From positions 1 through 57,285 of the forward strand of contig DAOVSH010000001.1 of assembly GCA_030633565.1 (NCBI GenBank): 57,285 bases of DNA. Reading direction: 5' to 3'. The position numbers and the translations under genes are program-made. Below, piece by piece: positions 1-45,009 of this stretch. The notes below the pieces were generated by a model, which worked only from the letters and a program-made list of their open reading frames with translations, was not told the DNA's origin and ran no database searches. The first letter of the stretch is position 1, and each line of letters starts with the position of its first letter. The DNA comes from Candidatus Cloacimonadota bacterium. GTDB taxonomy: Bacteria; Hydrothermota; E44-bin80.

Positions 1-425
1 ATCTGCATCGCGATACGTGAGCGTTCTAAAAATCCTCTAAATTTCACACGTACGCCTTCGTAATAAACATCCTCTTTTATCTTCTGTCCCTTCACCGTCT
101 CGGAATCAAAAACAAGCCCATCTGGAGTTACCGCAACCTTACATACATCCCTTATTACTTTCTCAATAGTTGCTATCTGATTGTCATAACGTGCCGATAA
201 ATCTATATCAAGGGTCGTTCGTCTTTCAGGCACCTGCCACACTGTAAACATAAGAGCACCTTTCAAAATAAACTTATCCGCATATTTAGAACGGCTAAAC
301 CTATAAAGAAATCTTTCCATCCCATAATATTGCAAAACCTCCGCAAATGGACGGTTCGTTTCTTTCGCTTTATTTTGAAGTTGAGCTCGCACAGAAGCTT
401 CTATATTCTTAATATTCTTTTTCAT
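1..425 (-). CDS. AbiEii-type nucleotidyltransferase toxin (type IV toxin-antitoxin / abortive infection AbiE), N-terminal part only; the gene runs off the window start
   Basis: Minus-strand translation from the ATG at rc 423-425 gives MKKNIKNIEASVRAQLQNKAKETNRPFAEVLQYYGMERFLYRFSRSKYADKFILKGALMFTVWQVPERRTTLDIDLS... This matches the conserved AbiEii/DUF1814 N-terminus (SVRARLLN...ERFLYRLS...F.LKGG). Its start overlaps the upstream stop as ATGA. It is absent from the ORF track because it is partial. Confidence 0.7.
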   Translation of the reverse strand, partial: MKKNIKNIEASVRAQLQNKAKETNRPFAEVLQYYGMERFLYRFSRSKYADKFILKGALMFTVWQVPERRTTLDIDLSARYDNQIATIEKVIRDVCKVAVTPDGLVFDSETVKGQKIKEDVYYEGVRVKFRGFLERSRIAMQ

Positions 426-1024
426 ATCATCGCTTCCAGTATTGGTTTTATTATACTATCGACTCGGCAAATCTTGGCGTATTTCATGATCTCTTTTGGC
501 TTTATGCCTTTTTCTGTAACAGCAACCTTGAGGGCATTTCTCGCAACATTTACACCTATTTTATTGCGGAATTTAAAGCAGTCGGCAATCGTCTTAGCAA
601 GGCTATAAACTTTGATTTCATGTCCTTCGATTTCATGTTTTTCAATCCCTGCTTCCCATGATTTAAGTGCGAAACGGTAAAATTTTACCGGGGGATACTT
701 AATTCTATTAGCATGTGTACGTTGCGGAATAGCTATATCCACATACCTCGGGATTTCGCTTGTCGCTTCATAAAAAGAAAGGGCAGAAAGAAGACAAACA
801 ATACCCTTAGGTGTCTGAAGTGATGCAATAACAAGATCGGGATGAGAACCCGGAGTATAATCAGTTACCCGATAAAGGCCCCGGGCAATCTTTTCAACCT
901 TTTTCTTTTTTTCAAGAGCGCTAAGCGAATCAGGATGAAAGCCAGCCTTTAGAATAGTGGAAAATCGAACTATCCCGCCATTCCTCTGAAAAAAACTCAT
1001 AAGTTCCTGTGTTCGTGTTCGCAT
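422..1024 (-). CDS. AbiEi-type antitoxin / transcriptional regulator (type IV TA system AbiEi family)
   Basis: 200 aa. The N-terminal region (MRTRTQELMSFFQRNGGIVRFSTI...KIARGLYRV) fits the AbiEi_4 winged-helix pattern, followed by a longer C-terminal domain. It sits immediately upstream of the AbiEii toxin gene and is translationally coupled to it through an ATGA overlap. Confidence 0.75.
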   Translation of the reverse strand: MRTRTQELMSFFQRNGGIVRFSTILKAGFHPDSLSALEKKKKVEKIARGLYRVTDYTPGSHPDLVIASLQTPKGIVCLLSALSFYEATSEIPRYVDIAIPQRTHANRIKYPPVKFYRFALKSWEAGIEKHEIEGHEIKVYSLAKTIADCFKFRNKIGVNVARNALKVAVTEKGIKPKEIMKYAKICRVDSIIKPILEAMI

Positions 1025-3279: not shown

Positions 3280-3311
3280 CAAAAAAGCCCCGATTATCGG
3301 GGCTTTTTTTA
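3280..3311 (-). terminator. Rho-independent terminator at the 3' end of the BMC shell gene pair (bidirectional in form)
   Basis: aaaaaaGCCCCGattatCGGGGCttttttt. The hairpin lies immediately after the stop codon at 3309-3311 on the minus strand, with T-runs on both strands. Confidence 0.6.
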
Positions 3312-3752
3312 CATTACCTTCTTAATCTCTTTAATTAATTTATCTTTATTGGATTTAGAGATTTCTCTTCCCTTAATTTCAATTCCGTCCGTATTTCTTG
3401 CAATTTTTCGCAGTTCTGTAACAGATAATTCTTCAAGGATTTTTATATCTGTTTTTTCTCCCTTTGTGGAAGCTGGTTTTGTTGTTGCATGAACTATGGA
3501 ATAGATTTCAATGTGTGGTCTTGGAATTACATGGACTGATATTAATTCCCCTATTTGTGCAGAACGATTTGCAGCTGTTTCAACTGCTGCTTTCACCGCA
3601 GCAACTTCCCCAATAATTTTTACACAGACATATCCTCCAGTTGATAGTTCGTATCCTAAAAGATGAACTTCTGCAGTTTTTGTCATTGCATCTGCTGATT
3701 CAATCGCAGCTGTGAGACCCTTTGTTTCGATCATTCCGAGAGAATATTCCAT
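3309..3752 (-). CDS. BMC-H microcompartment shell protein (PduA/EutM/CcmK fold) with a ~55-aa C-terminal extension
   Basis: MEYSLGMIETKGLTAAIESADAMTKTAEVHLLGYE...GEVAAVKAAVETA...HVIPRPH is the canonical BMC domain. The tail (ELSVTELRKIARNTDGIEIKGREISKSNKDKLIKEI) resembles a Rho_N/SAP-type helix-extension-helix motif. Confidence 0.85.
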   Translation of the reverse strand: MEYSLGMIETKGLTAAIESADAMTKTAEVHLLGYELSTGGYVCVKIIGEVAAVKAAVETAANRSAQIGELISVHVIPRPHIEIYSIVHATTKPASTKGEKTDIKILEELSVTELRKIARNTDGIEIKGREISKSNKDKLIKEIKKVM

Positions 3753-3758
3753 ATTGTT

Positions 3759-4058
3759 TTACTCCAAAAACTTACCTTTATTTGGTAGAATTTCTTCAAC
3801 CTCTTGGTGTGGTCTTGGAATTACATGGACTGAAACGAGTTCACCGACTCTTCCTGCCGCTGCTGCACCTGCATCAGTTGCTGCCTTTACAGCTCCAACG
3901 TCACCTCTGACGAAAACAGTGACATAACCACCACCTATTTTTTCTTTTCCTATAAGATGGACTCTTGCTGCTTTAACCATTGCATCTGCAGCTTCTATTG
4001 AGCCGATAAGACCTCTTGTTTCTATCATTCCAAGTGCTATTCCAATTTTTTCAGCCAT
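3759..4058 (-). CDS. BMC-H microcompartment shell protein (PduA/EutM-like)
   Basis: 99 aa: [84 protein letters not shown]. This is a textbook single-domain hexamer shell protein. It sits 6 bp from the neighbouring shell gene. Confidence 0.9.
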
Positions 4059-15131: not shown

Positions 15132-15149
15132 AACATCAAGTGAAAAGTC

Positions 15150-15460
15150 AAGATAAATCAGAGGATAGAAGGCAGAGGACAGAAGTCAGAAGGCAGAGGT
15201 CATAATGATTGTGAAACGGGGAAACGGAGTGTCGGAGAAACGGTGCATAAGCGAGTGAGATAAATTGTCTCATTAGTTAGATTAGTTGAATTGGTTTGAT
15301 TGGTTATGGGAACATAGCGTAATTAAGTAATTTGGTTATTGAGTAATTAACAGATAAGATTGCTTTATAAGAGAATATGAAAGTGTATTCGCAATGACAA
15401 ACTAACGGACTAAACGATAATAACGATCAAAACGCTCTAAACGAACTAAACGAAGTTAGT
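15150..15460 (+). repeat. Copy A of a modular intergenic repeat family (purine-rich AGRCAG tract plus modules shared with 22273-22384, 25724-26169, 29590-29960, 38890-39415)
   Basis: Shares long near-identical stretches with the other copies, e.g. tggttatgggaacatagcgtaattaagtaatttggttattgagtaattaacagataagattgctt...gtattcgcaatgacaaactaac...cgatcaaaacgctctaaacgaactaaacg. Confidence 0.8.
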
Positions 15461-15596
15461 TGCTGAAGTTTATAAATATGGTATTACTTCGCATCAGAAA
15501 ATCAGAATATCAGAGTGGAAAGTAAACAGTAAATAGTGATTAGTAAATAGAAAAATAAAATAAACTTTGCGGTCTTTGCGGTAATAATATTGTGTT

Positions 15597-18072: not shown

Positions 18073-18113
18073 AATTATCGTTCCAATTCAATAAATCCAA
18101 TAAATCAAACTAA

Positions 18114-19803: not shown

Positions 19804-20129
19804 TTGTCCTCCTTCTTTTTCTTTATTATTACCAGATTATATTTATATTGTCAATAAAAAAACAATATATAATATTATACTTATCTGCTTAACTCACATA
19901 ATGAGACGAAAATCTTCATTTTATTGTTGAGGAGGGACAGGTCCCCCTGGAATAATACATGTCCATAGGGACATGTCCCTTTCAGTTTAATCTGTTACAA
20001 TCAGTGTAATCATTATCGGAGGAATTAACTATTTAAGGAATTTTGACAATCGTCTATCCTTATAAATTTTTCCTCCTGTTTGGCATTTGGGACAGTAGTA
20101 TGTTCTATTCTTTTTTGAATATACCCACT

Positions 20130-20879: not shown

Positions 20880-20964
20880 GGTTATTTCACAATGTAGCCG
20901 CAGGCTTCAGCCTGCGTGAGTTTTTTCGCACCTTATTTAAACTCTGATTTTTTTTAGTAAAGGG

Positions 20965-22029: not shown

Positions 22030-22272
22030 GTCTTCACCTCCTCTCTATAGTTTGAGGTTAAACTAAAAGTTTTTATGTGTATATCATAAATTTCAGATTT
22101 TGTCAAAGCATTTTTTAATGATTTCTAAAGAAATATTAATTACACTCTGTTGGATAGTAAACATATAACAGGGGTGTTCTTACTTATTTTCTTCTTGCCT
22201 TTTTAACAGGATAACAGGATGTTCAGGATTAAAGTGTTTTGTTAATGAGGAAAGGGTGTCATTTTGATATTT

Positions 22273-22384
22273 TAATTACTCAATTACCAAATTACTCATT
22301 TACGTTCATTTACAGCGAAGCGTTACTTTAACAGGCGAAGCCGTCTGTTTCACAGCGTCAGCATTTATTTGCAGCGAAGCGTTT
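22273..22384 (-). repeat. Partial copy (E) of the intergenic repeat family plus three direct repeats of CAGCGAAGC, in the 3' flank of addA
   Basis: ttaattactcaattaccaaattactca is the reverse complement of the gtaattaagtaatttggtaattgagtaattaa module. cagcgaagcg, caggcgaagcc and cagcgaagcg recur at roughly 25-35-nt spacing. Confidence 0.5.
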
Positions 22385-25723: not shown

Positions 25724-26169
25724 CTTTTTTCGCCCGTTTCAATAATTAATATCGTTTGGTGATTGATCTGAATGTAAGATATACAATGTACAATGTAATG
25801 TAGCCGCAGGCTCTTGTCCTGAGCGGAGTCGAAGGGTCAGCCTGCATAACGTAACAGCTTCTTCCAGCCGAAGGTTAACTTCCATCCTGAGATAATCGAA
25901 GGATATCTTCCATCCTGAGCTTGTAGTGAGGGACTCGAACTGAGAAGTCGAAGGATTACTTCCAATGCATAGCATTAATTCACTCTCCGTTTCCCCGTTT
26001 CGCATTTGTTCTGTCTTCCGTTATCTGTCTTCTGTCCTCTGACCTCTGTCCTCTGACATCTATCTTCTGTTATCTGTCTTCTGTCTTCTGTTCTATGTCT
26101 TCTGACTTCTGTCCTCTGACATCTGTCTTCTGTTATCTGTCTTCTGACCTCTGACCTCTGTCTTCTGAC
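25724..26169 (-). repeat. Copy D of the modular intergenic repeat (reverse orientation) plus a ~150-bp (TCTGWC)n hexanucleotide microsatellite, lying between addB and addA
   Basis: 25740-26000 is the near-exact reverse complement of 39045-39400 and 29600-29760. 26020-26168 consists of tctgtc/tctgac/tctgtt hexamers. Confidence 0.8.
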
Positions 26170-29043
26170 CTATATTGTTTTAGGACAGAATTCACTATAT
26201 ATACAGAAGGTTTCGCAACCCTGTTTAAATAATGGTTCGAAATTTAATTCCTTTATTTCCTTCCATACACGTTCAATATTTGAAATGAACATTTCAATAG
26301 GAATTTGATTTCTTTCTTCTATAATACAACCTTCCTTACTATTTATCACGTAATATGCTGTTTTTGCTACCTTTCCGATACATTTTTGAACGGCAAGATT
26401 GTAAATAGGAAATTGGAAGCTTTCACCATTCTCAATTTTTCTGTTACTCGGAAGATTGCTCTTACTGCCTGTCTTGTAATCGTAAATTATCAAACCATCG
26501 CTATTTCTATCAATCCTGTCAATTCTGCCAACAAAGCTTAATCTTTCACCATTACACATTATCCATACATCATTCTGGTAAAACTTCCACTCAACATCAA
26601 GAACTGTATGGTTAATATTTTCCATCACTTCAGTTTCGAGAAACTTTTGGAAAAGTGATTTATAATACTTTGATATTAGTTCAAGCCTCATTAGAATTCT
26701 ATCCCTTACTCCCGGTGCCATCTTCTCAATTGTTTCGAGAGCAATTTTTCGCAATTCTTCCCAGTTATTAATATGGTTTGTTTTAATTTTTTTAGAAAGC
26801 CTTCTTTCATAAAAACGTGCAAGGATGTGGTGGATAATTTTACCCTTTATAAGGTTATCAACACCTTCTTCGGGTTCTTCTAATTCTCCAAGATTTAGTA
26901 TGTAACGAAAGAAAAAACTGTATGGGCACCTTTTATACGTTTCAAGGGAAATTGCAGATATTCTATTTGACAATTCATTAATTCTTATTTCTACGTACTT
27001 TCTTAATTCCTCAGAAGAAAACAAAATCTCTTTTATATTTTGTAATCGATTTTCATCCCTGAGCCTTTTTACCGCATCCTTTATTATCGATACTCTGTTT
27101 CTCATATCTTCTAAAAATAAATTTTCATTGAAGCTTTTATCAGTATGTATGATTTCCCCGATACTCATCTGCCATTCCAACAGTGTGTATACCTTATCCT
27201 TAATACCCATATCTTCTTCTTCTTGAATTTCCTGAAGGAATGGGCTTTTTATAAAAACATTACCTTTTTCATCCTTCTCATAGTAAGAACAATAAACCTT
27301 TTTTGCACCTTTAATAATACTTTCAAAGTTAAATTTTGAAAGGGTATAGAGCATATCATAAGTTGGAAACCCCATTTCCTCGAGTAGTTTTTCAGAGAAA
27401 AGAGGATTGTGCTGTGGTTTTCTGGGAAGTTTTCCTTCAACAAGTCCTGTTAAAAAAACCCTGTTAAAATTCATTCCAGCAATCTCTTCAAGGTCCAACA
27501 TCTCTACCCTTGTATCTATCTTCTGTTCTAACGATATTTTCATTGACTCTGAGTACGAGAAAATTATTCTCTGAAAATCCATAATGCCAAATTCCTGAAT
27601 AGTATTTACAAGTGGTTTTCTTTTAATTGAGAGAATAAACCTCAGGAGTGAATTGTATGCTATTATTTCAATATCTTCATCTAATTGTATAAGGTTATTA
27701 AGTATTGAAACGTATTGTTCAATAAATGCTGTCCCCTTTTTTGACTTTAAAATATTAAGTTCTTTTATGAAATTTGAAACTACCCTAAACTTACCTTCCC
27801 TGTCTATTATTCTTTTCCAATCATCACCTGAAACAATCATTTCTTCCCTTGTGACTTTGTCAATTATCATTCGTTCATTATCCTTTAGTATTTTTATATA
27901 AGGTGACATAAGAAAACTTACTACAGCTCTTCTTTTGAAATTTTGATGTATAATCTCGAATATTGCAAGACAGGTTTTTATAACAGGGAATTGAATTAGT
28001 TCTTTTCGAAAAAGTGATGAAGGATGAATCGAATATCGGGGAAAGATTCTTTCAAAGGTTCTTGTATAATTTTCAATTTCAGTGGATATTATGATGATAT
28101 TTTTATCAGGATTTTCATCTTTCACTTTCCTTGCAATTGCATCAACCTCATGCTCTTTTTTTTCGTATTTAAGTAGTTTTATTTCAGGAACAAAATCTGA
28201 TTCCTTTGTTTTGATTTCAATTTCTTCCTTCTCTACATCAATAATTCCTGTTGTTGTGAAACGAGCTCCAGGGAAGGAATAGAAGAAATCAAGCAATGAT
28301 ACAGATTTTGCTTCTTTGTATATCTTCATAAAAAGGTTTTGTTCGATTCTTCTCAGTATTGAAAGATGTTCTATATAAAAAGAGTATTCTTTTAAAATGT
28401 GAGGTTTCAAATGGTCAATAACCCACCATCTTTTATCACTCTCATCAATAATCTCATTGTTACTAAGAAACTCTTCATATAGTGTAAAAACCTTACATAG
28501 TATTGATAACAGTTTCTCATTAAATCTATTTTCTCTATTTAAAAGATCAAAGCAGGATGAATCTTCACGATACGAAATTATACTATCCTTATATTTGAGA
28601 GAAAGATTATATTCTTTAATGTTCTTAATCCATTCGAGAAAGAAGTTTGCCGTTTCGGTAGAGAGTGAGAAATCACCAGTTCTGAAAAGATACTTTCTTC
28701 TATTTAATAGAAGATGACGTATTATAATTTTCGCGTATTCATCTGAAATTAAACGTTTTGCTGTTCTCTCTTCAGGGGGGAGCATATCGTATAAAAGATC
28801 AAATAGTGGTCGAATCGAGACTAACCATGGCTTTATTTTCATAAGATTTTTATTTCTCAAATATTCAATTAACCTCCTTATTTTATCACCGGAATTTGCA
28901 ACATAAATTATTTTTCTTGCCTTCTTCCCATTATCAAGTGAAAAATGGTCTGACGAATAATTGTTTTCTATTAGATTTTTTATAAGGAAGAATTCCTTTT
29001 CTTGATTATCTATTGTAAGCTTGAATATTTTTACTGATTTCAT
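26170..29043 (-). CDS. addB: AddB-type nuclease subunit (PD-(D/E)XK nuclease with C-terminal Fe-S Cys cluster; helicase-like N-domain degenerate)
   Basis: 957 aa. RecB-like nuclease motif GRIDRIDRNSDGLIIYDYKTG. Cys before the nuclease domain (YKRCPY) and a C-terminal CETFCIYSEFCP, as in AddB iron-staple proteins. Upstream of addA. Confidence 0.65.
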   Translation of the reverse strand: MKSVKIFKLTIDNQEKEFFLIKNLIENNYSSDHFSLDNGKKARKIIYVANSGDKIRRLIEYLRNKNLMKIKPWLVSIRPLFDLLYDMLPPEERTAKRLISDEYAKIIIRHLLLNRRKYLFRTGDFSLSTETANFFLEWIKNIKEYNLSLKYKDSIISYREDSSCFDLLNRENRFNEKLLSILCKVFTLYEEFLSNNEIIDESDKRWWVIDHLKPHILKEYSFYIEHLSILRRIEQNLFMKIYKEAKSVSLLDFFYSFPGARFTTTGIIDVEKEEIEIKTKESDFVPEIKLLKYEKKEHEVDAIARKVKDENPDKNIIIISTEIENYTRTFERIFPRYSIHPSSLFRKELIQFPVIKTCLAIFEIIHQNFKRRAVVSFLMSPYIKILKDNERMIIDKVTREEMIVSGDDWKRIIDREGKFRVVSNFIKELNILKSKKGTAFIEQYVSILNNLIQLDEDIEIIAYNSLLRFILSIKRKPLVNTIQEFGIMDFQRIIFSYSESMKISLEQKIDTRVEMLDLEEIAGMNFNRVFLTGLVEGKLPRKPQHNPLFSEKLLEEMGFPTYDMLYTLSKFNFESIIKGAKKVYCSYYEKDEKGNVFIKSPFLQEIQEEEDMGIKDKVYTLLEWQMSIGEIIHTDKSFNENLFLEDMRNRVSIIKDAVKRLRDENRLQNIKEILFSSEELRKYVEIRINELSNRISAISLETYKRCPYSFFFRYILNLGELEEPEEGVDNLIKGKIIHHILARFYERRLSKKIKTNHINNWEELRKIALETIEKMAPGVRDRILMRLELISKYYKSLFQKFLETEVMENINHTVLDVEWKFYQNDVWIMCNGERLSFVGRIDRIDRNSDGLIIYDYKTGSKSNLPSNRKIENGESFQFPIYNLAVQKCIGKVAKTAYYVINSKEGCIIEERNQIPIEMFISNIERVWKEIKELNFEPLFKQGCETFCIYSEFCPKTI

Positions 29044-29236
29044 TTATTATTTATTATCATACAAAAAATAAAATGTAAAGAAAAATAAAATGTAGACATA
29101 GTTTACAACTTTACAGCCTCCGTCCCTAATTTTATAATCTTAATAATAATTAAAATAATACTTGACATATTCAATATTATACTGTATATTGTTAATATGA
29201 ATATTGAATATGTTAACATTTAATCTGGGAGTGAAA

Positions 29237-29587
29237 ATGATTACTAAGTGTCCTGTATGTCATGGAGCGTTGGAGATAAGGGAGCTTGGGTGTAATAAAT
29301 GTGATGTAACTATAAGAGGAAAGTTTCCATTTTCAGGTATTTTTCAATTATCACCCGAACAAATGGAGTTTGTGAAAATCTTTTTAAAATCCAGGGGAAA
29401 TATAAAGGAGGTGGAGAAAGAAGTTGGAATTTCATATCCTACTGTAAGAGGTAAACTGAATGATGTTTTGAAAAGCCTTGGAATGGAGCCTGATAAGAAA
29501 TCTATGAAGAGGGAGGAAGTTCTTGAATCCCTTTCAAAGGGAGATATTACTGCTGAGGAAGCAGTTGAAAAGCTAAAGAAGCTATAA
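29237..29587 (+). CDS. DUF2089-family protein (N-terminal C4 zinc ribbon plus HTH-like region) with a C-terminal SHOCT-like motif
   Basis: MITKCPVCHGALEIRELGCNKCDVTIRG...LSPEQMEFVKIFLKSRGNIKEVEKEVGISYPTVRGKL follows the DUF2089 pattern. The tail is REEVLESLSKGDITAEEAVEKLKKL. GGGAG lies 7 nt before the ATG at 29237; the ORF track starts at 29204. Confidence 0.6.
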   Translation: MITKCPVCHGALEIRELGCNKCDVTIRGKFPFSGIFQLSPEQMEFVKIFLKSRGNIKEVEKEVGISYPTVRGKLNDVLKSLGMEPDKKSMKREEVLESLSKGDITAEEAVEKLKKL

Positions 29588-29589
29588 TT

Positions 29590-29960
29590 AAAGAGAATAC
29601 CTGACGGTGAAAAGAAGAGTGAATTAATGCTATGCATTGGAAGTAATCCTTCGACTTCTCAGTTCGAGTCCCTCACTACAAGCTCAGGATGGAAGATATC
29701 CTTCGATTATCTCAGGATGGAAGTTAACCTTCGGCTGGAAGAAGCTGTTACATTATATTGAATTGCAAGTTAAAAGGAGAAAAATTGTTTGATTGGTTAT
29801 GAGAACATATCGTAATTAAGTAATTTGGTAATTGAGTAATTAACAGATAAGATTGCTTCATAAGAAAATATGAAAGTGTATTCGCAATGACAAACTAACT
29901 GACTAAACGACAATAACGATCAAAACGCTCTAAACGAACTAAACGGTGTTATCTATTAAC
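29590..29960 (+). repeat. Copy B of the modular intergenic repeat family
   Basis: It begins 3 nt after the DUF2089 gene stop. The modules gagtgaattaatgctatgcattggaagtaa, ccttcgacttctcagttcgagtccctcactacaagctcaggatggaagatatccttcgattatctcaggatggaagttaaccttcgg, gtaattaagtaatttggtaattgagtaattaacagataag and ...aaacgctctaaacgaactaaacg are shared with copies A, C and D. Confidence 0.85.
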
Positions 29961-29997
29961 TTAAAAACTCAATAACTAAGTAAAGGAGGTGTAGAAG

Positions 29998-30747
29998 ATG
30001 AATGAGAGAATGAAGATATTGAAAATGCTTGAGGAAGGAAAAATAACAGCTGATGAAGCAGCAAAATTGCTTGAAGCAGTTGGAAAGGAGAAGAAGAAAG
30101 ATATTGGTTCAAAAGTTGTTAACGGGATAATGGATGGTGTTTCTTCCATTGTAGGAGCCATACCGGGAACGATTGGTAGTGTTTTTTGTTGTACAATGGG
30201 AGAAGAAAAGGAAATAAAGGTAGAAAAAGGTGATGCATTTATACTGAAATCAGTTGGTTCTTCCATTAAACTCTCTCACAACGATAAGGATGAATTTATA
30301 CTGAAACCAAGTTCTGGTTTGATAAAATCAAAAAAAGAAAATTCCACAATTACATCAAAGATAGTTGGAGGTTCGGTGAAGATTCTCTATCCTTCAAGTT
30401 TATCTGTATCTATAAAGGATGCAGGGGGAACAATTGAGGGAGTTGGTAGTGCAGTATTGTCGCTTAAGCAGGTAGGAGGCTCTACACAATTAACATTCGA
30501 TGAAATAGAAGATGTAAATATAGATTCTAAAGGAGGATCGGTTACTCTCTATGTAGGTGACTGTGATGTTGCATTTGATATTTCTGCACCGAACGGAGAA
30601 GTTGAATTTGATGTTCCTGCAAAGTTTACGGTGGAAAAAGAAGATGAAGTAAAGGGAACAATAAAAAAAGGGAAAGGGAAGCTTTTTATCTATGCATCTT
30701 ATGGTAATGTTTCTGTTTTGCCCTTAAAAGAAAAGGAGGAGAAATGA
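29998..30747 (+). CDS. N-terminal SHOCT-like motif plus DUF4097-like all-beta domain protein (LiaF/YvlB-type putative stress-response protein)
   Basis: 249 aa. N-terminal MNERMKILKMLEEGKITADEAAKLLEAVG. Then repetitive beta-strand segments (GGSVKILYPSS..., GSVTLYVGDCDV..., GNVSVLPLKE) typical of DUF4097. Confidence 0.5.
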   Translation: MNERMKILKMLEEGKITADEAAKLLEAVGKEKKKDIGSKVVNGIMDGVSSIVGAIPGTIGSVFCCTMGEEKEIKVEKGDAFILKSVGSSIKLSHNDKDEFILKPSSGLIKSKKENSTITSKIVGGSVKILYPSSLSVSIKDAGGTIEGVGSAVLSLKQVGGSTQLTFDEIEDVNIDSKGGSVTLYVGDCDVAFDISAPNGEVEFDVPAKFTVEKEDEVKGTIKKGKGKLFIYASYGNVSVLPLKEKEEK

Positions 30748-31004
30748 GTTTAAGAATTTGGGGACCTATAATACTCATCGCACTTGGTGTTCTTTTCTGG
30801 CTTGGTAAATTTGGTATCATTGATTTTTACTGGAGCAGGGATTGGCCAGTTATTCTTATAGTAATTGGTGTTTTCTCTCTTATTAATCTAATAGTCAAAA
30901 AAACGAGGAGAAGAAGTTCCAGGAACAAAAGAGATATATTAACCAAACTCGAAAACGGTAAGATAGATGCGGAAGAGGCAATAAAAAGAATAAAGAGGCT
31001 GTAA
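30744..31004 (+). CDS. Small two-TM membrane protein (LiaF/DUF2154-like N-domain) with a C-terminal SHOCT-like motif
   Basis: 86 aa: two hydrophobic helices (IILIALGVLFWL..., PVILIVIGVFSLINLIV), a basic stretch, then RDILTKLENGKIDAEEAIKRIKRL. Its start overlaps the upstream gene as ATGA. Confidence 0.5.
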   Translation: MSLRIWGPIILIALGVLFWLGKFGIIDFYWSRDWPVILIVIGVFSLINLIVKKTRRRSSRNKRDILTKLENGKIDAEEAIKRIKRL

Positions 31005-31095
31005 TAATAAGACAGAAGACAGATAGAAAGAGAGTAAGGAGTAGGTAGTAGGGAGTGAGCAGTAAACAACAAAAAAAATAAAAAAGGAGGAAGAA

Positions 31096-31491
31096 ATGGA
31101 CGAAAAATTAAAGATATTAAAAATGCTGGAGGATGGCAAGATTTCCAGTGAACAAGCCAATAAATTACTTGAAGCCATCGAAAATAAATCCAATAATATA
31201 GAAAGTAAAGCCAAATGGTTGAAAGTTAAAGTTATTGAAGATGGTTGCCAGAAAGTTAACATAAAGATTCCCTTAAAAGTAATAAGAATTGCAGCGAAGA
31301 TCGGTGGAAAATTAAACATTAATCTTCCAGAAGAAGCAAAGGAAAAACTTGCTGAGAAGGGGATAAACCTTGAAAAAATTGATGATGTTGAAAAATTAAA
31401 TGAGATACTTGAAGAGATTGAAAAAGAAGCACCATTTGAACTTGTAAATGTCGATGAAGGGACAAAAAAAGTTTTTGTTTATATTGAATAG
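31096..31491 (+). CDS. Small acidic protein with an N-terminal SHOCT-like motif
   Basis: 131 aa. N-terminal MDEKLKILKMLEDGKISSEQANKLLEAIENKS, nearly identical to the N-terminus of the 29998 gene. Strong GGAGG Shine-Dalgarno. Followed by a terminator. Confidence 0.45.
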   Translation: MDEKLKILKMLEDGKISSEQANKLLEAIENKSNNIESKAKWLKVKVIEDGCQKVNIKIPLKVIRIAAKIGGKLNINLPEEAKEKLAEKGINLEKIDDVEKLNEILEEIEKEAPFELVNVDEGTKKVFVYIE

Positions 31492-31502
31492 AACGTAAAA
31501 AG

Positions 31503-31534
31503 AAAAGCGGGGTTAAAAACCCCGCTTTTTTTAT
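31503..31534 (+). terminator. Rho-independent terminator ending the SHOCT cluster
   Basis: AAAGCGGGGTTaaaAACCCCGCTTTTTTTATT, 12 nt after the stop at 31491. Confidence 0.7.
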
Positions 31535-31656
31535 TAATAGAATAAAATTCTGTTGAGCTATTTCTTGTATTTTTCATATTTTTTCTTGACATTTTTGCAA
31601 ATTTATGCTATATTTATATTTAGAAAAGATAGTAATGAAAGGAGTGATAAAAAAAC

Positions 31657-31848
31657 GTGCCTGCAATTAAGATAAGAGATGGCGAAAGTTTTGAAAGTGC
31701 TCTTCGAAGATTTAAGAGAATCTGTGAGCAGGAAGGAATACTAAGCGATATTAGAAAACACCAACATTTCGAAAAACCTAGCGAAAAAAAGAAAAAAAGA
31801 ATACTTGCTGCCAAAAGAAAAATCAAACGTTTTGGCTCATTTCACTAA
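31657..31848 (+). CDS. rpsU: 30S ribosomal protein S21
   Basis: 63 aa. Translation MPAIKIRDGESFESALRRFKRICEQEGILSDIRKHQHFEKPSEKKKKR... shows the conserved S21 ALRRFKR core. GTG start preceded by AAGGAG. Confidence 0.85.
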   Translation: MPAIKIRDGESFESALRRFKRICEQEGILSDIRKHQHFEKPSEKKKKRILAAKRKIKRFGSFH

Positions 31849-31974
31849 TTAAAAAAGGATTTTATTTTACAGTCAGCTATAAACCACGTAGGACAGAGAT
31901 TTAGTATACAAGTTAATTTACTTACTTAGTATATCTAAAATCTCTATTGTTTTTGTGGTAAATTTTAACCATAG

Positions 31975-34302
31975 ATGTCTTTTACCCCTGAAATTCTAAA
32001 ATTATTAGAATTTAACAAGTTAAAGGAAATCATTTCCTCTTTCTCTTTTTCCATTCTGGGAAGAGAGACTATTCTTTCTATAGTTCCTTATAAAGATAGA
32101 AATAAGAGAAAAGAGACAATATCCCTTGTTAAAGGGTTTAGATTACTGTTTAGTTCCGGACGAAACTTTCCTGTCCCAGATGATAATGATATTAGGCCGC
32201 TTATTAAAAAATTAGAAGAAGGTGCTTATCACCTATCACTGAATGAGCTTATACTCGCAGGCAAAATTACAGAAGATTACAAAAATGTAGGTAATTTTCT
32301 AAGCAAACTTTCCAGTGAGTTTAGAACTTTATCGAAACTCGGTTCGGTTTTAAAGAATCTTCCAGATTTATACAAAAAGGTCCAAGGTATTGTTGATGAA
32401 CATGGAGGAATAAAGGATAGTGCATCTGATGAGCTAAGATCTATAAGAACCGGTTTTAGAAAAATGCATCAGAAGCTTTTACGTGCTGCAAATAAGCTTA
32501 TCTCAGAAAAAAAGAGGTTTCTTCAGGAGGAGATATTTACTACAAAAGATAAAAGGATTGTCCTTCCAGTTATTTTTTCAAAAAAGAACAATGTTCCAGG
32601 TATTGTCCACAGCACATCTCAAACTCAGAATACCGTTTTTATCGAGCCGATTGAGTTGGTTGAAATGAACAACGAATATGCTACGTTTAAACTGAGAGAA
32701 GAGAGAGAAATAAAACGGATATTGAGGAGATTGACAGAGAATATTATTGAAAATATTAGTTGTTATGAGAAATCTATCGAAGAAATGAAAAAAATTGATA
32801 TGTTATATTCACTTGCATCTTTTTCCGAAGAATATAACTACTCGGCTCCTACTTTTTCAGATGAGATGTATCTTTCGATAAGAGGAGGAATGCATCCACT
32901 GCTTTTAATAAATAAAGGAAGGGAAGAAGTTATTCCTTTTGATATCAGACTTGGTGAAAACTCAAAAGTTATTCTTATCAGTGGACCAAACATGGGAGGG
33001 AAAACTGTACTTTTAAAGAGCATTGGAATAATTACACTTATGGCTTATGCCGGTATGCACATACCTGCTAACGACGATTCGGTTATCCCTGAAATTGATT
33101 GCATTTTTGCTGATATTGGTGATGAGCAATCAATTGAAATGAACCTGTCAACATTTTCGTCTCATATCAATAATATAAGCATTGCACTCAGAAATTCAAC
33201 AGAGAGGTCTTTTGTTCTTCTTGATGAAGTAGGTGTTGGAACAGATCCTGAAGAGGGAATGGGGATTGCAATGGCAACACTGGAAAGGTTGGCTGAAAAA
33301 GGTGTTCTAACATTTGCAACAACACATTATGGAAAACTCAAACATTTTGTTGCAGGGAAAGAGAATATGGAAAATGCTTCAATGGATTTCGACAGTGAAA
33401 ATGGAGTCCCGACTTACCACCTATCCTATGGAATTCCTGGTTCATCACATGGTTTTGCAATTGCTGAAAAGGTGGGTTTTCCAACCGAGCTTTTAAGAAA
33501 GGCAAAATCTTACGTTGATGAGAATGAATTGAAGACTGATGAATTGATATGTTCTCTCGAGGAATTAATGAAGCAGGTTAAGAATAACCAAAATATTGTA
33601 AATGAAGAGAAGGAAAAATATAATATACTATTTGATAAATATAATAAGAAATATAATGAAATTAAAAGTAAGGAGAAGGAACTCATCAAGAATGCAAAAA
33701 AACGTACAGAAGAGATCGTTTACGCGACGCGAAAGGAGATGGAAAATCTTATTAAGACAATACGAGAATCACAGGCAACAAAAGAGAGTATAATGAAGGC
33801 AAAGAAGGTGATATCTGAGAAGATCAAAGGTTTTGAAGAGGAACAAGAAATTAAAACTGAAAAGAAATTTGATATTGGTGACTTTGTATATTCTAATAAA
33901 TTAAAAATATCAGGAGTAGTGAAGGAAATTTTGGACGGGTTTGCTAAGGTTGAAACAGAAAAATTTCGTTTTTTAGCACCTTTTAATACTTTAGAGGTAA
34001 AAATACGTGAGAGAAAGAGTGAAGATAGAGATATTGTGATTGTTGATAGGAATAAATTAAACTTTGAGATTGATATAAGAGGTCTTTTTGTTGAAGAAGC
34101 TGAGATGAGAGTAACTAAATTCATTGATGATGCAGTATTATCAGGAGTATTAACTATATACATAATTCACGGTAAAGGCAGTGGTGTTTTGAGAAAGGCG
34201 ATTGGAACGCTTCTTAAGAAAGATAAAAGAATAGATGAATATAGGCTTGGGTACTGGAATGAAGGAGGAAGCGGTGTAACAATTGCAAATTTAAAAAAAT
34301 AA
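31975..34302 (+). CDS. mutS2: Endonuclease MutS2 (MutS-family ATPase with C-terminal Smr domain)
   Basis: 775 aa. Walker A GPNMGGKTVLLKSIG and MutS signature. C-terminal Smr domain (IDIRGLFVEEAEMRV...IIHGKGSGVLRKAI). Confidence 0.85.
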   Translation: MSFTPEILKLLEFNKLKEIISSFSFSILGRETILSIVPYKDRNKRKETISLVKGFRLLFSSGRNFPVPDDNDIRPLIKKLEEGAYHLSLNELILAGKITEDYKNVGNFLSKLSSEFRTLSKLGSVLKNLPDLYKKVQGIVDEHGGIKDSASDELRSIRTGFRKMHQKLLRAANKLISEKKRFLQEEIFTTKDKRIVLPVIFSKKNNVPGIVHSTSQTQNTVFIEPIELVEMNNEYATFKLREEREIKRILRRLTENIIENISCYEKSIEEMKKIDMLYSLASFSEEYNYSAPTFSDEMYLSIRGGMHPLLLINKGREEVIPFDIRLGENSKVILISGPNMGGKTVLLKSIGIITLMAYAGMHIPANDDSVIPEIDCIFADIGDEQSIEMNLSTFSSHINNISIALRNSTERSFVLLDEVGVGTDPEEGMGIAMATLERLAEKGVLTFATTHYGKLKHFVAGKENMENASMDFDSENGVPTYHLSYGIPGSSHGFAIAEKVGFPTELLRKAKSYVDENELKTDELICSLEELMKQVKNNQNIVNEEKEKYNILFDKYNKKYNEIKSKEKELIKNAKKRTEEIVYATRKEMENLIKTIRESQATKESIMKAKKVISEKIKGFEEEQEIKTEKKFDIGDFVYSNKLKISGVVKEILDGFAKVETEKFRFLAPFNTLEVKIRERKSEDRDIVIVDRNKLNFEIDIRGLFVEEAEMRVTKFIDDAVLSGVLTIYIIHGKGSGVLRKAIGTLLKKDKRIDEYRLGYWNEGGSGVTIANLKK

Positions 34303-34524
34303 AAAAAAAGTTGCAAAAGCTATATTTAGCAATTATATTGTAGTAAATGTATAAAGGAAGAAAAAAATAGTTTTAAACCGTACTTTAACTCCAGGTATTC
34401 TTGTGATTTACAATTTTAATGCATCTTTTATTTCTTAAAACACATTTTCACTACTTGTTCGTTATGTTTATATTTCATAGATGGGAACGTGCGGGTAAAT
34501 GCCAATTGTCTTGAAGTTTTAATA

Positions 34525-36294
34525 ATGTCAAGTTTTTATTTAAATCAGGAGAAAATTGAGGAAGTCAGGGAGTCAGCTGATATTGTAGATATAATCAGCG
34601 AATATATCCCTATTAAAAAGACAGGAAAAAATTATACAGGGCTATGCCCTTTTCATTCTGAGAAAAAACCATCATTCACGGTTTCACCTATAAAACAATT
34701 ATACCATTGCTTCGGGTGTGGTGCAAGCGGGAATGTGATTACTTTTGTAATGAACTACGAATCTGTATCGTTCATTGAAGCAATTGAAATACTTGCAAAA
34801 AAATATGGCATAACGCTTAAAAAAAAGTCTGCTTATAGTGAAGATAAGAAAAAGCAAGAAATAATCAATGCAAATGAGTTTGCATTTAAGCATTTTAAAA
34901 ATAATTTATTTTCTGAATCAGGAAAACACGCACTTGAGTACTTAAAAAAACGGGAAATAAATCTGGATACGATAGAGAAATTTGGATTAGGTTATGCTCC
35001 AGAAGGATGGGATAATCTATTACGAGCAGCTCAAAAAGAGGGTATATCAAATAAAATACTAATTTCTGCTGGTCTTATCGTCGAAAATGAAAAAGGTAAA
35101 TTATATGATAGGTTTAGAAAACGCATTATATTCACTTTCTACAACTCAATTGGAAAGAAAATCGGATTTGCAGGAAGGAATTTGGGAGATGAAATGCCAA
35201 AGTATCTTAACATTTCTGAATCCCCATTATATAAAAAGAGATATACTCTTTATGGTCTTTATCAGTCTAAAGAAGAAATAAGAAAACTTGATAAATGTCT
35301 TATTGTTGAAGGTTATATGGACGTACTTGCATTATATCAAGCAGGGTTCAAAAATACTGTCGCAATTTCCGGCACATCACTGACTGATGAACAGGCAAAA
35401 TTTATTAGGAAATATACAAGAAATATCTATATATCTTTTGATGCTGATAAACCCGGTAAGGAAGCAACTTTAAGGGGTATTTCGATTTTTATACAAAATG
35501 GGCTTATACCCTACATAATGACTCTTGTTAAAGGTAAAGATCCTGATGAAATAGTAAAAAAAGAAGGAAAGGAGATATTTCAAAAAATCGTTGATGCCGC
35601 AGAACACTTTATCGATTTTAAAATGAGGTTCTTACTATCAAAATATAATTTATATAATGCAGTTGAAAAAGCCCAGGTTGTAAGAGAAATAGGTAAGACT
35701 TTGATGCAGGTTAGAGATTTAACCGAAAGACAAATGTGGTTAAGCAACGTTTCTAGGAAGTTATCAGTTGACGAGTCCATTTTGATAATAAATACGAAAA
35801 AATCAAGTAGAGAACAATTTATTCCTTATGTTTCGTCTTTGAATGAGATATGTCATGATCTAGTAGCAATGCTTTCACTGAAACCTGAACGATATGAAGA
35901 GGTTGCAAAAGTTTTTAAAGAGGAGGAATTGCTCGACGAAACCTCACAAAGAATCCTATCCTATATAGGAGGAAAAGTATTAAATATAGATGAAATTTGT
36001 ATAGCAGATATTGTTAACTTAATAGAAGACAGAGATGAGAGGAAAAGGGTGTCCTCAACCGTTTTTAATATTAAAGATGATATCAAAGAAGAGGATTTCG
36101 CGAAAATGATTGATCAGTATATTATTCATATAAAAGCTGATAGATTGAAAGAAAGATGGAAAAGTATCAGACAAGAAATAAAAAGTAGGGGGGGGGATAT
36201 CGAGGGAGTAAGAACCCTTTTAGAAGAACAGAGAAGAATTGCTTCAATATTAAAAAACTTAGGAGGGAATGTTGTTAGCGAAAAGAGTGTTTAA
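34525..36294 (+). CDS. dnaG: DNA primase DnaG
   Basis: CHC2 zinc finger ([32 protein letters not shown]), TOPRIM domain ([21 protein letters not shown]), and a C-terminal DnaB-interaction region. The start is chosen at MSSFYL (34525); the ORF track uses a GTG at 34489. Confidence 0.85.
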
Positions 36295-38005
36295 AATTGA
36301 AGAAATCCTCAAATTTGTAAATAAGGGAAAAATTTCTTTTCAAACATTGAATAACGTTTTACCAAAAGAGCTAATAAAACCTGAGGAACTTGATAATATT
36401 TTTATGTATTTGGATGCTGTTGGTGTTGTGGTTTATGAAGATGAATCTTTTAAGAAAACGAAAGAAAAACCCACAAAACAAGTAGTAAAAGCTGGAGACG
36501 GAAGAACCGCTAAATATAAATCTGATATTCGGATTGATGATCCAATAAGAATTTATCTTAAAGATATGGGAAAGGTATTTCTCTTATCGAGAGAAGGAGA
36601 AGTATCAATTTCTAAGAAAATTGAAAATGGACGTATGTGTATAATGAAGAACCTTTTTTATATACCATTAGGCTTGAGAGAAATTGTATCGTTCTACTAC
36701 AAACTTAAAAATAATGAAATTCGAATCGAGGAATTTATACATGTTGATGTAAATGACTGGCCACACAACTATTCAGGATGGAAGGAAAAGCAGAGAGTTA
36801 TGAGATTGCTTGAAGGGATAGAACGATATAGAAAACAATACTGTGAATCTTTGAAACGTTTAAAAAATTTGAAATATGGTAAAAAAATTATAGAGGAAGA
36901 GAAGAAACTTCAAGCAGTTCATGAGAAGATAATAAGTAAAGTTTCTCGATTAAAAATTCAGGAAAGAGTTATACTGGATGTTATTTATAAACTTAAGGAT
37001 CTCGTTTCTGAGATAAAAAATATTGAAAGAAGAGCAAAGAAAATTGAAAATTCTGTCGGGGTAGATAGAGAAGAAATTCTTGGGCTGAAGAAGAAAAGAA
37101 TAACAAAAAAAGTTATTGAGAGTATCGGTAAAGATAAGGAACTGATAAAAAAAGATATTGATGATTTGGAGTATTTGGTGAACAAGTTAGATGATATAGA
37201 AAAGAATGAAATAATCCTTTTAAAAGATCTCAAGAAATTATTACATACAATAAAGGTTTGGGAAAAGGTAATTTCACAACTCAAAGAAAAGATGATTGAG
37301 GCAAATGTCAGGCTTGTTATTAGCATAGCAAAAAGATATACAAATAGAGGACTTGATTTTCTCGATTTAATCCAGGAAGGAAATACAGGATTAATGAAGG
37401 CAGTTGAAAAATTTGATTACAAAAAAGGTTATAAATTCAGTACATACGCAACATGGTGGATTAGGCAGGCAATTACAAGAGCAATTGCTGATCAGGCAAG
37501 AACAATTAGGGTTCCTGTACATATGATCGAGGTTATTCATAAGGTTGTAAAAGCAACAAGAGAGCTTGTACAGGTGAATGGAAGAGATCCAACACCAGAT
37601 GAAATTTCAAAGAAAATTGGAATTTCTGTATTAAAAGTGAAAAGTGTTTACAAAATTGCCCAGGATACTGTTTCTCTTGACAAACCCATAGGGAATGAAG
37701 AAGAGAGTTTTCTTGGCGATTTTATCCCTGACAGAACTGTTACATCACCTGCACATTCAGCTGCACTGGTATTATTACAGGAAAAACTCCAGAGAGTACT
37801 GGGAACGCTCAGCCCAAGGGAACAGAAGGTGCTCGAGATGAGATTTGGTCTTAGTGACGGCACACCAAAAACCCTTGAGGAAGTTGGGATGATGTTTAAT
37901 GTTACAAGGGAAAGGGTAAGACAGATTGAAACAAAAGCATTAAAGAAATTACGTCATCCTACAAGGGCTCGGAGGTTAAAGGGATTCCTTGAAATGCCGG
38001 AATAG
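36269..38005 (+). CDS. rpoD: RNA polymerase primary sigma factor (sigma-70, RpoD)
   Basis: 578 aa with region 1.1, a long non-conserved insert, region 2 ([54 protein letters not shown]) and regions 3-4. The start is uncertain and may overlap the dnaG end. Confidence 0.85.
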
Positions 38006-38170
38006 AGAGAAATACAGAAGACAGATATCAGATAACAGACAACAGATAACAGATATCAGATAACAGACAACAGACAACAGATATCAGACATCAGACATCA
38101 GACATCAGACAACAGACAACAGATATCAGACATCAGACATCAGACAACAGATAACAGATAACCTCTAACA
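38006..38170 (+). repeat. Hexanucleotide microsatellite (CAGAYA)n, ~27 units, immediately after the rpoD stop
   Basis: cagataacagacaacagataacagatatcagataacagacaacagacaacagatatcagacatcagacatcagacatcagacaacagacaacagatatcagacatcagacatcagacaacagataacagataacc. This is the reverse complement of the (TCTGWC)n tract at 26020-26168. Confidence 0.9.
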
Positions 38171-38199
38171 ACAAAAATGTAACCGCCAAACGTCGTGAA

Positions 38200-38889: not shown

Positions 38890-39415
38890 AATAAGACAGA
38901 AGACAGCTCACAGCTAACAGCATACAGCTAACAGCTCACAGCTGACAGCATACAGCTAACAGCATACAGCTAACAGCATAACAAATTGAGTGATTGGTTG
39001 GAAGACAGAACGAATGCGAATCGGAGTATGGTAGTGTCGGAGAAACGGGGAAACGGAGAGTGAATTAATACTATGCATTGGAAGTAAGCACTTCGTGCTG
39101 GAAGATATCCTTCGATTATCTCAGGATGGAAGTTAACCTTCGGTTGGAAGAAGCTGCTACGTTATATTGAATTGCAAGTTAAAAGTAGAAAAATCGTTTG
39201 ATTGGTTTAATTTGTTTAATTAGTTGTATTGGTTATGGGAACATAGCGTAATTAAGTAATTTGGTAATTGAGTAATTAACAGATAAGCAGGCTCTTCGCT
39301 GGAGTGGGTTCGCAATGACAAACTTACGCAGGCTGACCCTTCGACTCCGCTCAGGACAAGAGCCTGCGGCTACCTTACATCGAAAATTTACATCCAGATC
39401 AATAGCCAAACGATA
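38890..39415 (+). repeat. (ACAGCW)n microsatellite followed by copy C of the modular intergenic repeat, with a GC-rich stem module at its right end
   Basis: 38893-38960 are acagct/acagca hexamers. 39045-39300 match copies B and D. 39290-39375 (caggctcttcgctggagtgggttcgcaatgacaaacttacgcaggctgacccttcgactccgctcaggacaagagcctgcggctac) matches the reverse complement of 25800-25860. Confidence 0.85.
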
Positions 39416-39418
39416 TTA

Positions 39419-40450: not shown

Positions 40451-40554
40451 TGATTTAACTATTTACAGTATCCTTACGGGTTAAAAATAAAAGTTTTAAA
40501 TTATTTTCTTGACATAATTGTGACAATGTGATATAAAAATTGTAGTTACATTCT

Positions 40555-45003: not shown

Positions 45004-45009
45004 GGAGGT

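Follow-up and report, generated by a model that had tools for sequence, protein, structure and literature searches.

A composite intergenic repeat with a GTAG-tagged REP hairpin in a Candidatus Cloacimonadota bacterium

A family of intergenic repeats occupies part of a 57,285-nt stretch of DNA from a Candidatus Cloacimonadota bacterium (contig DAOVSH010000001.1 of assembly GCA_030633565.1, positions 1 to 57,285; hereafter the window). The family contains four long copies, designated A to D, and several smaller members. With moderate confidence, we read it as a composite repeat specific to this lineage: a mosaic of small selfish elements and slippage arrays, co-transcribed within operons and similar in style to the bacterial interspersed mosaic elements (BIMEs) of Escherichia coli and the Neisseria intergenic mosaic elements (NIMEs). 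One of its modules, a GC-rich hairpin, is a repetitive extragenic palindrome (REP) with a GTAG tag, of the family that flanks genes for REP-associated tyrosine transposases (RAYTs) in other genomes.

Copies and block order of the repeat

Self-BLAST of the window and a repeat finder recovered all four long copies listed in the initial annotation. The copies share blocks of 43-159 nt at 85-98% identity (lowest E value 5e-73). The self-BLAST matches link A 15294-15452 to C 29787-29945 (159 nt, 95.6%, E 3e-71), B 25846-25998 to C 29756-29604 (153 nt, 97.4%, E 5e-73), C 29690-29798 to D 39099-39207 (109 nt, 95.4%), A 15258-15358 to D 39187-39287 (87%), and B 25745-25849 to D 39420-39324 (85%). Two partial copies proposed earlier, one a GTAATTA block and the other a solitary GC hairpin, are also present. 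Three further members extend the earlier list: a free-standing heptamer array behind rpoD, a pair of short arrays, and a weak CTAAACG copy (Table 1).

Every copy lies between open reading frames (ORFs) and none inside one, as had been proposed. The heptamer arrays start 0-11 nt past the stop codons of addB, rpoD and a methyltransferase gene, which agrees with an earlier remark that copies begin close to stop codons. Seven of the eight members are oriented as their co-directional neighbor genes, and copy A is antisense. The copies are concentrated between 15 and 39 kb; the remaining ~33 kb of the window holds a single weak partial copy, and no long copy was found in ~6 kb of extra flank gained by extending the window through neighboring contigs.

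Once A to D are turned the same way round and aligned, every pair has its shared blocks in collinear order, and the copies differ only by the presence or absence of blocks. The modules are therefore not shuffled between copies, contrary to the initial annotation. The full unit begins with a tandem purine-rich array of CAGNNNN heptamers, followed by GAAACGG heptads, block Mb (GAGTGAATTAATRCTATGCATTGGAAGTAA), one or two TCCTTCGA...CTCAGGATGGAAG units, an AT-rich stretch in which TTGGTTT and GTAATTA recur with a heptad-like period, TTCGCAATGACAAAC with CTAAACG-type repeats, the GC hairpin, and a leader block abutting the next start codon. Each of the short blocks that follow the GAAACGG heptads contains a mini-hairpin. 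Copy D is nearly complete. Copy A is devoid of Mb, the TCCTTCGA...CTCAGGATGGAAG units and the hairpin, copy B of the AT-rich stretch and the TTCGCAATGACAAAC segment, and copy C of the array and the hairpin.

TRF delineates period-7 arrays at 26009-26167 (22.7 units), 38021-38162 (20.3 units), 38903-38983 (11.4 units) and 15167-15197, and the identity at lag 7 reaches 0.75 in the rpoD array. The heptamer words depend on the locus: CAGAAGA/CAGAGGT in A and B, CAGCTAA/CAGCATA in D, and CAGATAA/CAGACAT after rpoD. The repeats display a strong purine strand asymmetry.

Exact-pattern scans gave 0 matches for block TCTCAGGATGGAAGTTAACCTTCGG in the genome contig collection and for CAGGATGGAAGTTAACCTTCGG in the metagenome contig collection. 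The lineage-specific blocks thus appear to be private to this organism, whose species, with these regions, has no representative in the collections scanned. A search of the protein collection with the translation of an 88-aa ORF running through copy B, meant to uncover copies mis-called as genes, gave no scoring match. A tRNA-derived origin of 'GTTCGAGTCCC' was considered and rejected: no tRNA was detected, and the flanks form no T-arm by eye.

The GC-rich hairpin

On the strand reading GTAGCCGCAGGCTTCAGCCTGCG, the hairpin consists of an unpaired GTAGC and a 7-bp stem, CGCAGGC/GCCTGCG, that closes a 4-nt loop. The stem-loop, CGCAGGC-TGAA-GCCTGCG, is GC-rich in a genome of 33% GC. The pattern has 3 matches in the window versus 0.00 expected from 100 shuffles. 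In all three hairpins AGCCTGCGGCTAC (the reverse complement of GTAGCCGCAGGCT) is exact and the GTAG tail is unpaired, and all three lie between co-directional genes. The loops of copies B and D harbor a 24-nt insert, CCCTTCGACTCCGCTCAGGACAAG, which is absent from the solitary hairpin. This 'empty' form shows the hairpin to be an independent unit and the 24-nt block an optional insert.

The hairpin is widespread in public collections. A scan allowing 0-30 nt in the loop found it in 9 IMG/VR contigs, 8 of them with the exact 22-mer, and in at least 120 contigs of JGI metagenomes. The contigs range from 30 to 73% GC and their flanks are unrelated. A further 76 perfect hairpins in 131 REP loci have the frame GTAG(C/T)CGCA-NNN-TTYA-NNN-TGC in common, and their inner stems vary in a complementary manner; the variants are GGC/GCC, ACC/GGT, CCC/GGG, AGC/GCT, AAC/GTT and GCC/GGC, and the TTYA loop is conserved. 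Such a shared frame with complementary stem changes is the signature of a GTAG-tagged REP family as described by Di Nocera et al. (PMC3733652). By crude ORF calling, 112 of 133 environmental copies are intergenic, and the 133 copies have no orientation bias relative to neighboring ORFs. The lack of an orientation preference argues for an element working at the level of DNA, as opposed to a directional RNA signal.

The hairpin exhibits every REP property that could be examined: the stem-loop, the GTAG tail, the extragenic site, the compensatory variants, and RAYT flanking in other genomes. The GC module is a GTAG-tagged REP of the RAYT-flanking family. The initial annotation had raised REP-like, mRNA-stabilizing structures as a possibility; the likeness to REPs holds for the GC module only, and the stabilizing role is not borne out, since the predicted folding of entire copies does not surpass that of shuffled sequence. 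That distant species can have REP families in common has been noted before (Di Nocera et al. 2013, PMC3733652). Literature string searches with the REP sequence and its typical mistranslations returned no description of this family or of its association with heptamer arrays.

The phage nature of several REP-bearing viral contigs was confirmed by PHROGs matches to a major head protein, a protease and a tail sheath. The exact 22-nt REP occurs in phage contigs of 43-66% GC (L046-L054), for example at L050 6773-6794 and 9033-9054. One phage copy directly follows the major-head-protein gene. Another lies inside a long head-protease ORF, just upstream of an internal Shine-Dalgarno sequence and ATG, which may be the start of a nested scaffold gene.

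RAYT genes, the loop unit and heptamer arrays in other genomes

The ORFs adjoining REPs in four environmental contigs (L108, L122, L106 and L059) encode proteins of 158-169 aa, all four of which match Pfam Y1_Tnp (PF01797). The proteins of L108, L122 and L059 were also compared with NCBIfam, and all three match NF047646, 'REP-associated tyrosine transposase', with 73.9-92.1 bits, two above the curated cut-off of 80 bits. The matches to the initial RAYT query sequence were verified with Pfam and NCBIfam. The four proteins are mutually 39-50% identical. With one of them as query, at least 498 homologous clusters were retrieved, many of them annotated by JGI as 'REP element-mobilizing transposase RayT'. 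In L108, the REPs beside the RAYT gene alternate +,-,+,-,+ at a spacing of 60-70 nt, a classical BIME-like layout.

As an independent test, the RAYT homologues P0072, P0074, P0044 and P0038 were picked by protein similarity alone (loci L177-L190). Their genes carry GTAGCCGCAGGCTTTAGCCTGCG ~10-15 nt upstream, and an inverted copy just downstream in nearly all loci. These proteins were also considered as candidates for the RAYT of the present genome. P0072 comes from the same sampling project, but it probably belongs to another organism because its contigs have 38-46% GC. P0074 is from unrelated samples, and P0044 and P0038 are from Hainich groundwater. Downstream of a RAYT gene of the same sampling project (L177 2388-2470), a decayed REP tail, CGCAGGCTAAAGCCTGTGGTTAC, contains one G-T stem pair. 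Tandem CAGACYGTGGTTA units come next, so that here too tandem repeats have grown beside a REP.

The 24-nt loop insert is also found exactly in two viral contigs. In L056 the exact unit occupies the loop of a CTAC-tailed hairpin with a different stem, and in L119 close variants (~95%) occupy loops of CTAC-tailed hairpins whose stems are entirely different. In the window, the TCCTTCGA...CTCAGGA blocks resemble an AT-shifted form of this unit, by eye. The unit, TTCGACTYCGCTCAGGRCARG, additionally forms head-to-tail tandem copies at ~7040-7110 of L130 (- strand) and ~12300-12373 of L055; the latter lie in apparently coding DNA (translation ..SFDSASFDSASFDSAQDKPFG..) of a phage contig with 66% GC. 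The motif CGCAATGACA, which directly precedes the REP in copy D, recurs in L068, and other contigs contain similar forms.

Heptamer arrays accompany REPs elsewhere as well. Period 7 is the commonest non-triplet tandem repeat in REP-bearing contigs, with 65 arrays, compared with 20 for period 8 and 8 for period 6. A period-7 array lies within 100 nt of 14 of 201 REPs, compared with 4.9 +/- 2.2 at random positions (~3x), an excess that partly reflects the intergenic location of both features. Two contigs of 31-34% GC (L120 ~760-1200 and L156 ~2380-2490) bear a composite of their own beside the same REP (..aacaccttc.tatactttctacttcctactattattctgc|REP), with CTACTTY, AAAACCY and TTCAGTG heptamers and a second type of hairpin (GTAGGGCAAACCTTTAGGTTTGC). 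It is a further mosaic family in this style, from a different organism.

A bolder interpretation of these data is that the GTAG REP, the 24-nt TTCGAC..CTCAGGACAAG unit and the heptamer arrays make up an undescribed inter-phylum system, served by one RAYT subfamily (at least 498 clusters) and ferried by phages. The Cloacimonadota composite would then be a new REP-seeded non-autonomous element and not a passive mosaic. This interpretation draws on a REP that is base-identical across genomes of 30-73% GC and phage head-gene regions, and on a 24-nt unit that inserts into REP loops of unrelated stems. We consider it unlikely.

Independent assemblies and turnover of the repeats

The same DNA is present in the NCBI metagenome-assembled genome (MAG) GCA_023127905.1 and in ENA/Logan assemblies of BioSamples SAMN18200501-507. 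Copy A with both unique flanks is spanned by JAGMEZ010000493.1 of the NCBI MAG (L035), with 0 differences in the copy, and copy B with both unique flanks by an ENA scaffold (L036). These spanning contigs match the window at 99.9-100% identity. Another contig (L001) also contains the rpoD array and a portion of copy C. The independent contigs across A and B indicate that the repeats are genuine multi-copy DNA. An assembly artefact, with repeats collapsed or chimeric at contig joins, had been named as a way in which the family could be spurious; many short-read contigs do stop within the repeats, but given the spanning contigs and the reproduction of C and the rpoD array, its probability is negligible. 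Nor do the modules match a known insertion sequence, intron or rRNA fragment. Since short-read assemblies break at the repeats, the repeats limit the contiguity of MAGs.

A short tandem repeat outside the family differs between assemblies of different samples. The intergenic 9-nt repeat AATCCAATA at 18085-18106 has a one-unit difference (a 9-nt indel at 18089-18097) between L037/L039 and the window, which directly documents polymorphism by slippage within the population.

RpoD of the window has counterparts with 79-83% identity in five MAGs, three of them labeled Candidatus Cloacimonadota, that come from sediments, marine and other. The gaps that contain repeats are much shorter in relatives. 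The addB-addA gap is 446 nt here versus ~67 nt in L005, the DUF2089-SHOCT gap 410 nt versus 77 nt (L002) and 108 nt (L005), and the rpoD-methyltransferase gap 194 nt versus 0-80 nt. None of the repeat modules is present in the rpoD loci of the relatives (L002-L006). The closest relative, L002, contains a different heptamer, AATTCCC x3.6, at the site after rpoD, and AGCGTAG heptamers after the methyltransferase gene, where its contig ends. The short orthologous gaps without modules, together with the other heptamers of L002, indicate insertions or expansions that turn over fast in the clade, and the repeats have expanded in this lineage.

A second, unrelated repeat type exists in the clade. Tandem repeats of 18-19 nt with related units, TGTTAACAAACGCTATCGC versus AGCGTTTGTTTACAGCTT (reverse complement), are located at L041 1413-1466, ~3.3 kb past the right end of the window, and at L006 14-82, the contig end of a relative.

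Table 1. Positions of the repeat members and their modules in the window
Feature	Position	Strand	Remarks
Copy A	15132-15596	+	between CitMHS transporter gene and leuD-like gene, both - strand; antisense
A, heptamer array	15158-15202	+	CAGAAGA/CAGAGGT type
A, GAAACGG heptads	15213-15243		
A, ATTAGTT/TTGGTTT block	15272-15306		
A, GTAATTA block	15318-15358		
A, TTCGCAATGACAAAC + CTAAACG block	15382-15454		
Solitary 'empty' REP hairpin GTAGCCGCAGGCTTCAGCCTGC	20894-20915	+ (GTAG strand)	85-nt gap between two - strand genes
Partial GTAATTA block	22272-22304	-	91-94% to A, C, D; 355-nt gap after addA stop; preceded by three CGCTTCGCTG-type mini-hairpins
Copy B	25724-26169	-	between addB (stop 26170-26172) and addA (start 25723), same direction as both
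B, leader block	25724-25799		
B, REP hairpin with 24-nt loop insert	25800-25845		
B, two CCTTCGA..CTCAGGATGGAAG blocks	25846-25955		
B, block Mb	25956-25985		
B, GAAACGG heptads	~25982-26008		
B, heptamer array	26009-26169		CAGAAGA/CAGAGGT type
Copy C	29588-29997	+	between DUF2089 gene and SHOCT/DUF4097 gene; sense
C, Mb	29617-29646		
C, CCTTCGA..CTCAGGA blocks	29647-29752		
C, block Me	29753-29810		
C, GTAATTA block	29811-29851		
C, block Mg	29852-29874		
C, TTCGCAATGAC + CTAAACG block	29875-29945		
Two short heptamer arrays	31009-31065	+	AAGACAG x2.1, GAGTAAG x4.9; 91-nt intercistronic gap; lag-7 identity 0.60
Free-standing heptamer array	38006-38199	+	rpoD/methyltransferase gap, sense; CAGATAA/CAGACAA/CAGACAT, ~20 units, 88% matches
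Copy D	38890-39418	+	most complete; between methyltransferase and alpha/beta-hydrolase genes; sense
D, heptamer array	38897-38983		CAGCTAA/CAGCATA
D, GAAACGG heptads	39000-39058		
D, Mb	39058-39087		
D, mini-hairpin GCACTTCGTGC	39088-39098		replaces block Mc
D, Md	39099-39165		
D, Me + TTGGTTT heptads	39166-39245		
D, GTAATTA block	39246-39287		
D, degenerate inverted REP arm	39287-39312		
D, TTCGCAATGACAAAC	39306-39327		
D, REP with 24-nt loop insert	39328-39373		
D, leader block	39374-39418		runs into ATG
Weak partial CTAAACG block	47643-47701	-	71% to A; between two - strand genes
TTTAACT/AGTTAAA heptamer array	47714-47749	-	adjoins weak CTAAACG copy (whole site 47643-47749)

Proposed origin and alternative explanations

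The composite mosaic that we favor may have arisen as follows. The CAGNNNN array, which starts at the upstream stop codon, most likely gains and loses units through slippage during replication. The REP unit would be introduced and multiplied by a RAYT, now or formerly, acting on single-stranded hairpin DNA. Such an action is established in vitro for TnpA-REP of E. coli (PMC3333891, PMC3479197); GTAG REPs, BIMEs and RAYTs are otherwise treated in PMC3733652, PMC2817692 and PMC3333891. Recombination or gene conversion may carry the long blocks from locus to locus, with deletions shortening them afterwards, which would explain why A and C have a long, nearly identical stretch in common without a REP. 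Copies would persist only where they are harmless, namely between genes.

Copies B, C and D and the rpoD array lie between co-directional genes and contain no strong signals of their own, suggesting that they are probably transcribed with their neighbors as parts of operon mRNAs. No consensus for a sigma-70-type promoter or an intrinsic terminator was found in B and D, and copy C contains only weak promoter-like matches at about the chance rate. At the edge of copy A, a good promoter-like site (TTGACT-17-TATATT, 15151-15123, - strand) faces the leuD-like gene. An effect on expression through spacing, mRNA decay or translational coupling is possible, as a by-product more than a function.

Several observations weigh against the proposed mosaic. 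Copies A and C share their 159 nt at 95.6% and neither contains the REP hairpin, so that RAYT action alone cannot explain the spread of the long blocks. Each copy contains one REP at most and no alternating pairs, that is, the defining layout of a BIME is absent. No gene for a RAYT or another transposase was found in the window. Blocks Mb, Md and Me-Mh have no match outside this genome in the collections scanned. Finally, the sense orientation of seven of the eight members hints at selection at the RNA level, with a two-sided p of ~0.07 that is not significant.

The last point bears on a reading of the repeats as a functional cis-acting RNA platform, in which ribosomes or an RNA-binding protein would attach to the purine-rich arrays and mini-hairpins, so that the neighboring cistrons are adjusted in their decay or translation. 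A regulatory RNA role has been proposed for the TAACTGA heptamers of Beggiatoaceae (PMC4679880). The sense orientation between co-directional genes, the arrays beginning right after stop codons, the lack of promoter and terminator consensus in B and D, the purine asymmetry, and the different heptamers of the closest relative at the same junctions are all consistent with such a platform. But copy A is antisense, folding z-scores are not significant, the REP has no orientation preference in other genomes, and the locus-dependent heptamers (CAGAAGA, CAGATAA and CAGCTAA) provide no common binding word. GGA motifs of the CsrA type are not enriched beyond base composition either. A CsrA sponge with CAGGAUG-like motifs was accordingly dropped, as the GGA counts are within ~1 sd of mononucleotide shuffles. 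We regard the RNA platform as distinctly unlikely.

By analogy with the REPs and BIMEs of E. coli, the repeats might instead be host-useful DNA sites that bind gyrase, IHF-like or other nucleoid proteins and organize supercoiling between highly transcribed units. The copies do contain a REP-family hairpin, and binding of such proteins to REPs or BIMEs is reported (PMC2817692, PMC3333891). Half of the long copies are without a REP, though, and the heptamer units are not conserved between loci, which makes this role improbable.

The initial annotation had also suggested mobile elements like miniature inverted-repeat transposable elements (MITEs), non-autonomous insertion-sequence derivatives that are moved as a unit by a DDE transposase. 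The multiple copies, their strictly intergenic sites, the 85-98% identity between them and the assembly breaks would all fit. But no inverted repeat joins the ends of any copy, and the only inverted REP remnant is the degenerate arm in D (26 nt, 73% complementary). Sharp termini common to the copies are missing, their first and last modules being different. No target-site duplication is recognizable at their junctions, the empty sites of the relatives being too diverged for base-by-base alignment. The window lacks a transposase gene, and BLAST of copy D against plasmid and phage records gave only a 46-nt match at chance level. A MITE is thus very improbable.

Genes for small RNAs, the remaining proposal of the initial annotation, or a large structured non-coding RNA would account for the local hairpins and for a conservation far above that of ordinary spacer. 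The Rfam 15 covariance models, though, gave no match in any copy at the gathering threshold, and none at E<=5 over 15000-39500. Predicted folding of whole copies was no more stable than that of shuffled sequence (z +0.44, +0.41 and -1.25), and B and D lack promoter- or terminator-like signals. In addition, the copies differ by the gain or loss of entire modules, a variation that would be incompatible with a single structured RNA. We consider a non-coding RNA family extremely improbable.

Comparison with known repeat systems

The hairpin shares with GTAG-tagged REPs (PMC3733652, PMC2817692, PMC3333891) a short GC-rich stem-loop with an unpaired GTAG and an extragenic location between unidirectional ORFs. 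Compensatory stem changes, a variable loop length, and the flanking of RAYT genes in other genomes, mostly as inverted pairs, are further common traits. However, only 3 copies were seen, in the ~63 kb of this genome that were covered; REPs typically number more than 100 per genome. The identical 22-mer in contigs of 30-73% GC and in phages also has a broader distribution than the described families, which are mostly confined to a species or genus.

Like the BIMEs of E. coli, the composite is intergenic, often lies within operons, and combines a REP with short conserved motifs in a fixed arrangement with presence/absence variants. BIMEs are made of alternating REPs with short linkers, whereas here at most one REP is found per copy of 300-530 nt, and heptamer arrays and lineage-specific blocks make up most of the length. 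Alternation of this REP family is seen in the metagenome contig L108, not in the window.

In Neisseria, NIMEs are linked to phage integration and recombination. NIMEs, which consist of RS units bounded by dRS3, are likewise large intergenic mosaics in which small tagged palindromic repeats are interleaved with other families (PMC3733652). They differ in having CGTC-tagged dRS3 repeats and no heptamer arrays.

Known heptamer families include the short tandemly repeated repetitive (STRR) sequences of cyanobacteria, with words such as CCCCAGT, TTGGTCA and CAACAGT. Together with the TAACTGA repeats of Beggiatoaceae, Cyanobacteria and Bacteroidetes (MacGregor 2015, PMC4679880), they resemble the present arrays in forming tandem 7-nt intergenic arrays that often adjoin coding regions and in units that vary between lineages. 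The units here are CAGNNNN, GAAACGG, GTAATTA and similar, in contrast, with TAACTGA occurring once only (copy C), and the arrays are joined to longer dispersed blocks and a REP.

The 24-nt loop block, present in B and D and absent from the solitary hairpin, recalls the small dispersed repeats (SDRs) of Nostoc punctiforme. Elhai and colleagues reportedly described these in 2008 as units of ~21-27 nt inserted in other repeats or heptamer arrays without target duplications. SDRs are cyanobacterial, whereas the 24-nt unit also occurs in GC-rich genomes and phages, and the likeness is one of behavior.

Other features of the window

The window is ordinary bacterial chromosome of ~33% GC, and its genes include addA/addB, dnaG, rpoD, mutS2, dxr, uppS and ribosomal protein genes. 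A cobalamin riboswitch (RF00174, 40555-40722, + strand, 97.5 bits, E 4e-23) is positioned directly upstream of a TonB-dependent receptor gene (40743-42728), an ordinary BtuB-type arrangement. A 160-nt divergent gap of 18% GC at 29044-29203 separates a - strand gene block (1-29043) from a + strand block (29204-46326). The sign of the GC skew flips at this gap and back at ~46 kb with gene orientation; the skew therefore follows the direction of transcription and marks no origin.

The intergenic region 19804-20129 (- strand) contains GGGACATGTCCC-type palindromes (gggacatgtccctatggacatgt..gggggacctgtccctcc), which are unrelated to the repeat family; the region may serve as an operator or a terminator. 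An AbiEi/AbiEii toxin-antitoxin (abortive-infection) pair is situated at the left edge (window 1-1024 and L044 11367-12880), and two genes for bacterial microcompartment (BMC) shell proteins at 3309-4058.

Implications

A targeted literature search combining Cloacimonadota with repeat and intergenic terms found no description of such repeats for the phylum. The present analysis gives an anonymous conserved spacer an identity: at least one of its modules belongs to the world of REPs and RAYTs, and the whole resembles BIME and NIME mosaics. The repeats also matter for assembly, as break points for the short-read contigs of this organism. The letter-identical 22-nt REP, the 24-nt loop unit in different stems and the heptamer arrays point to horizontal traffic of very small elements. 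If the composite mosaic is the correct explanation, this genome would be expected to encode a RAYT of the L108/P0072 subfamily, flanked by inverted GTAGCCGCAGGCTT(C/T)AGCCTGCG.

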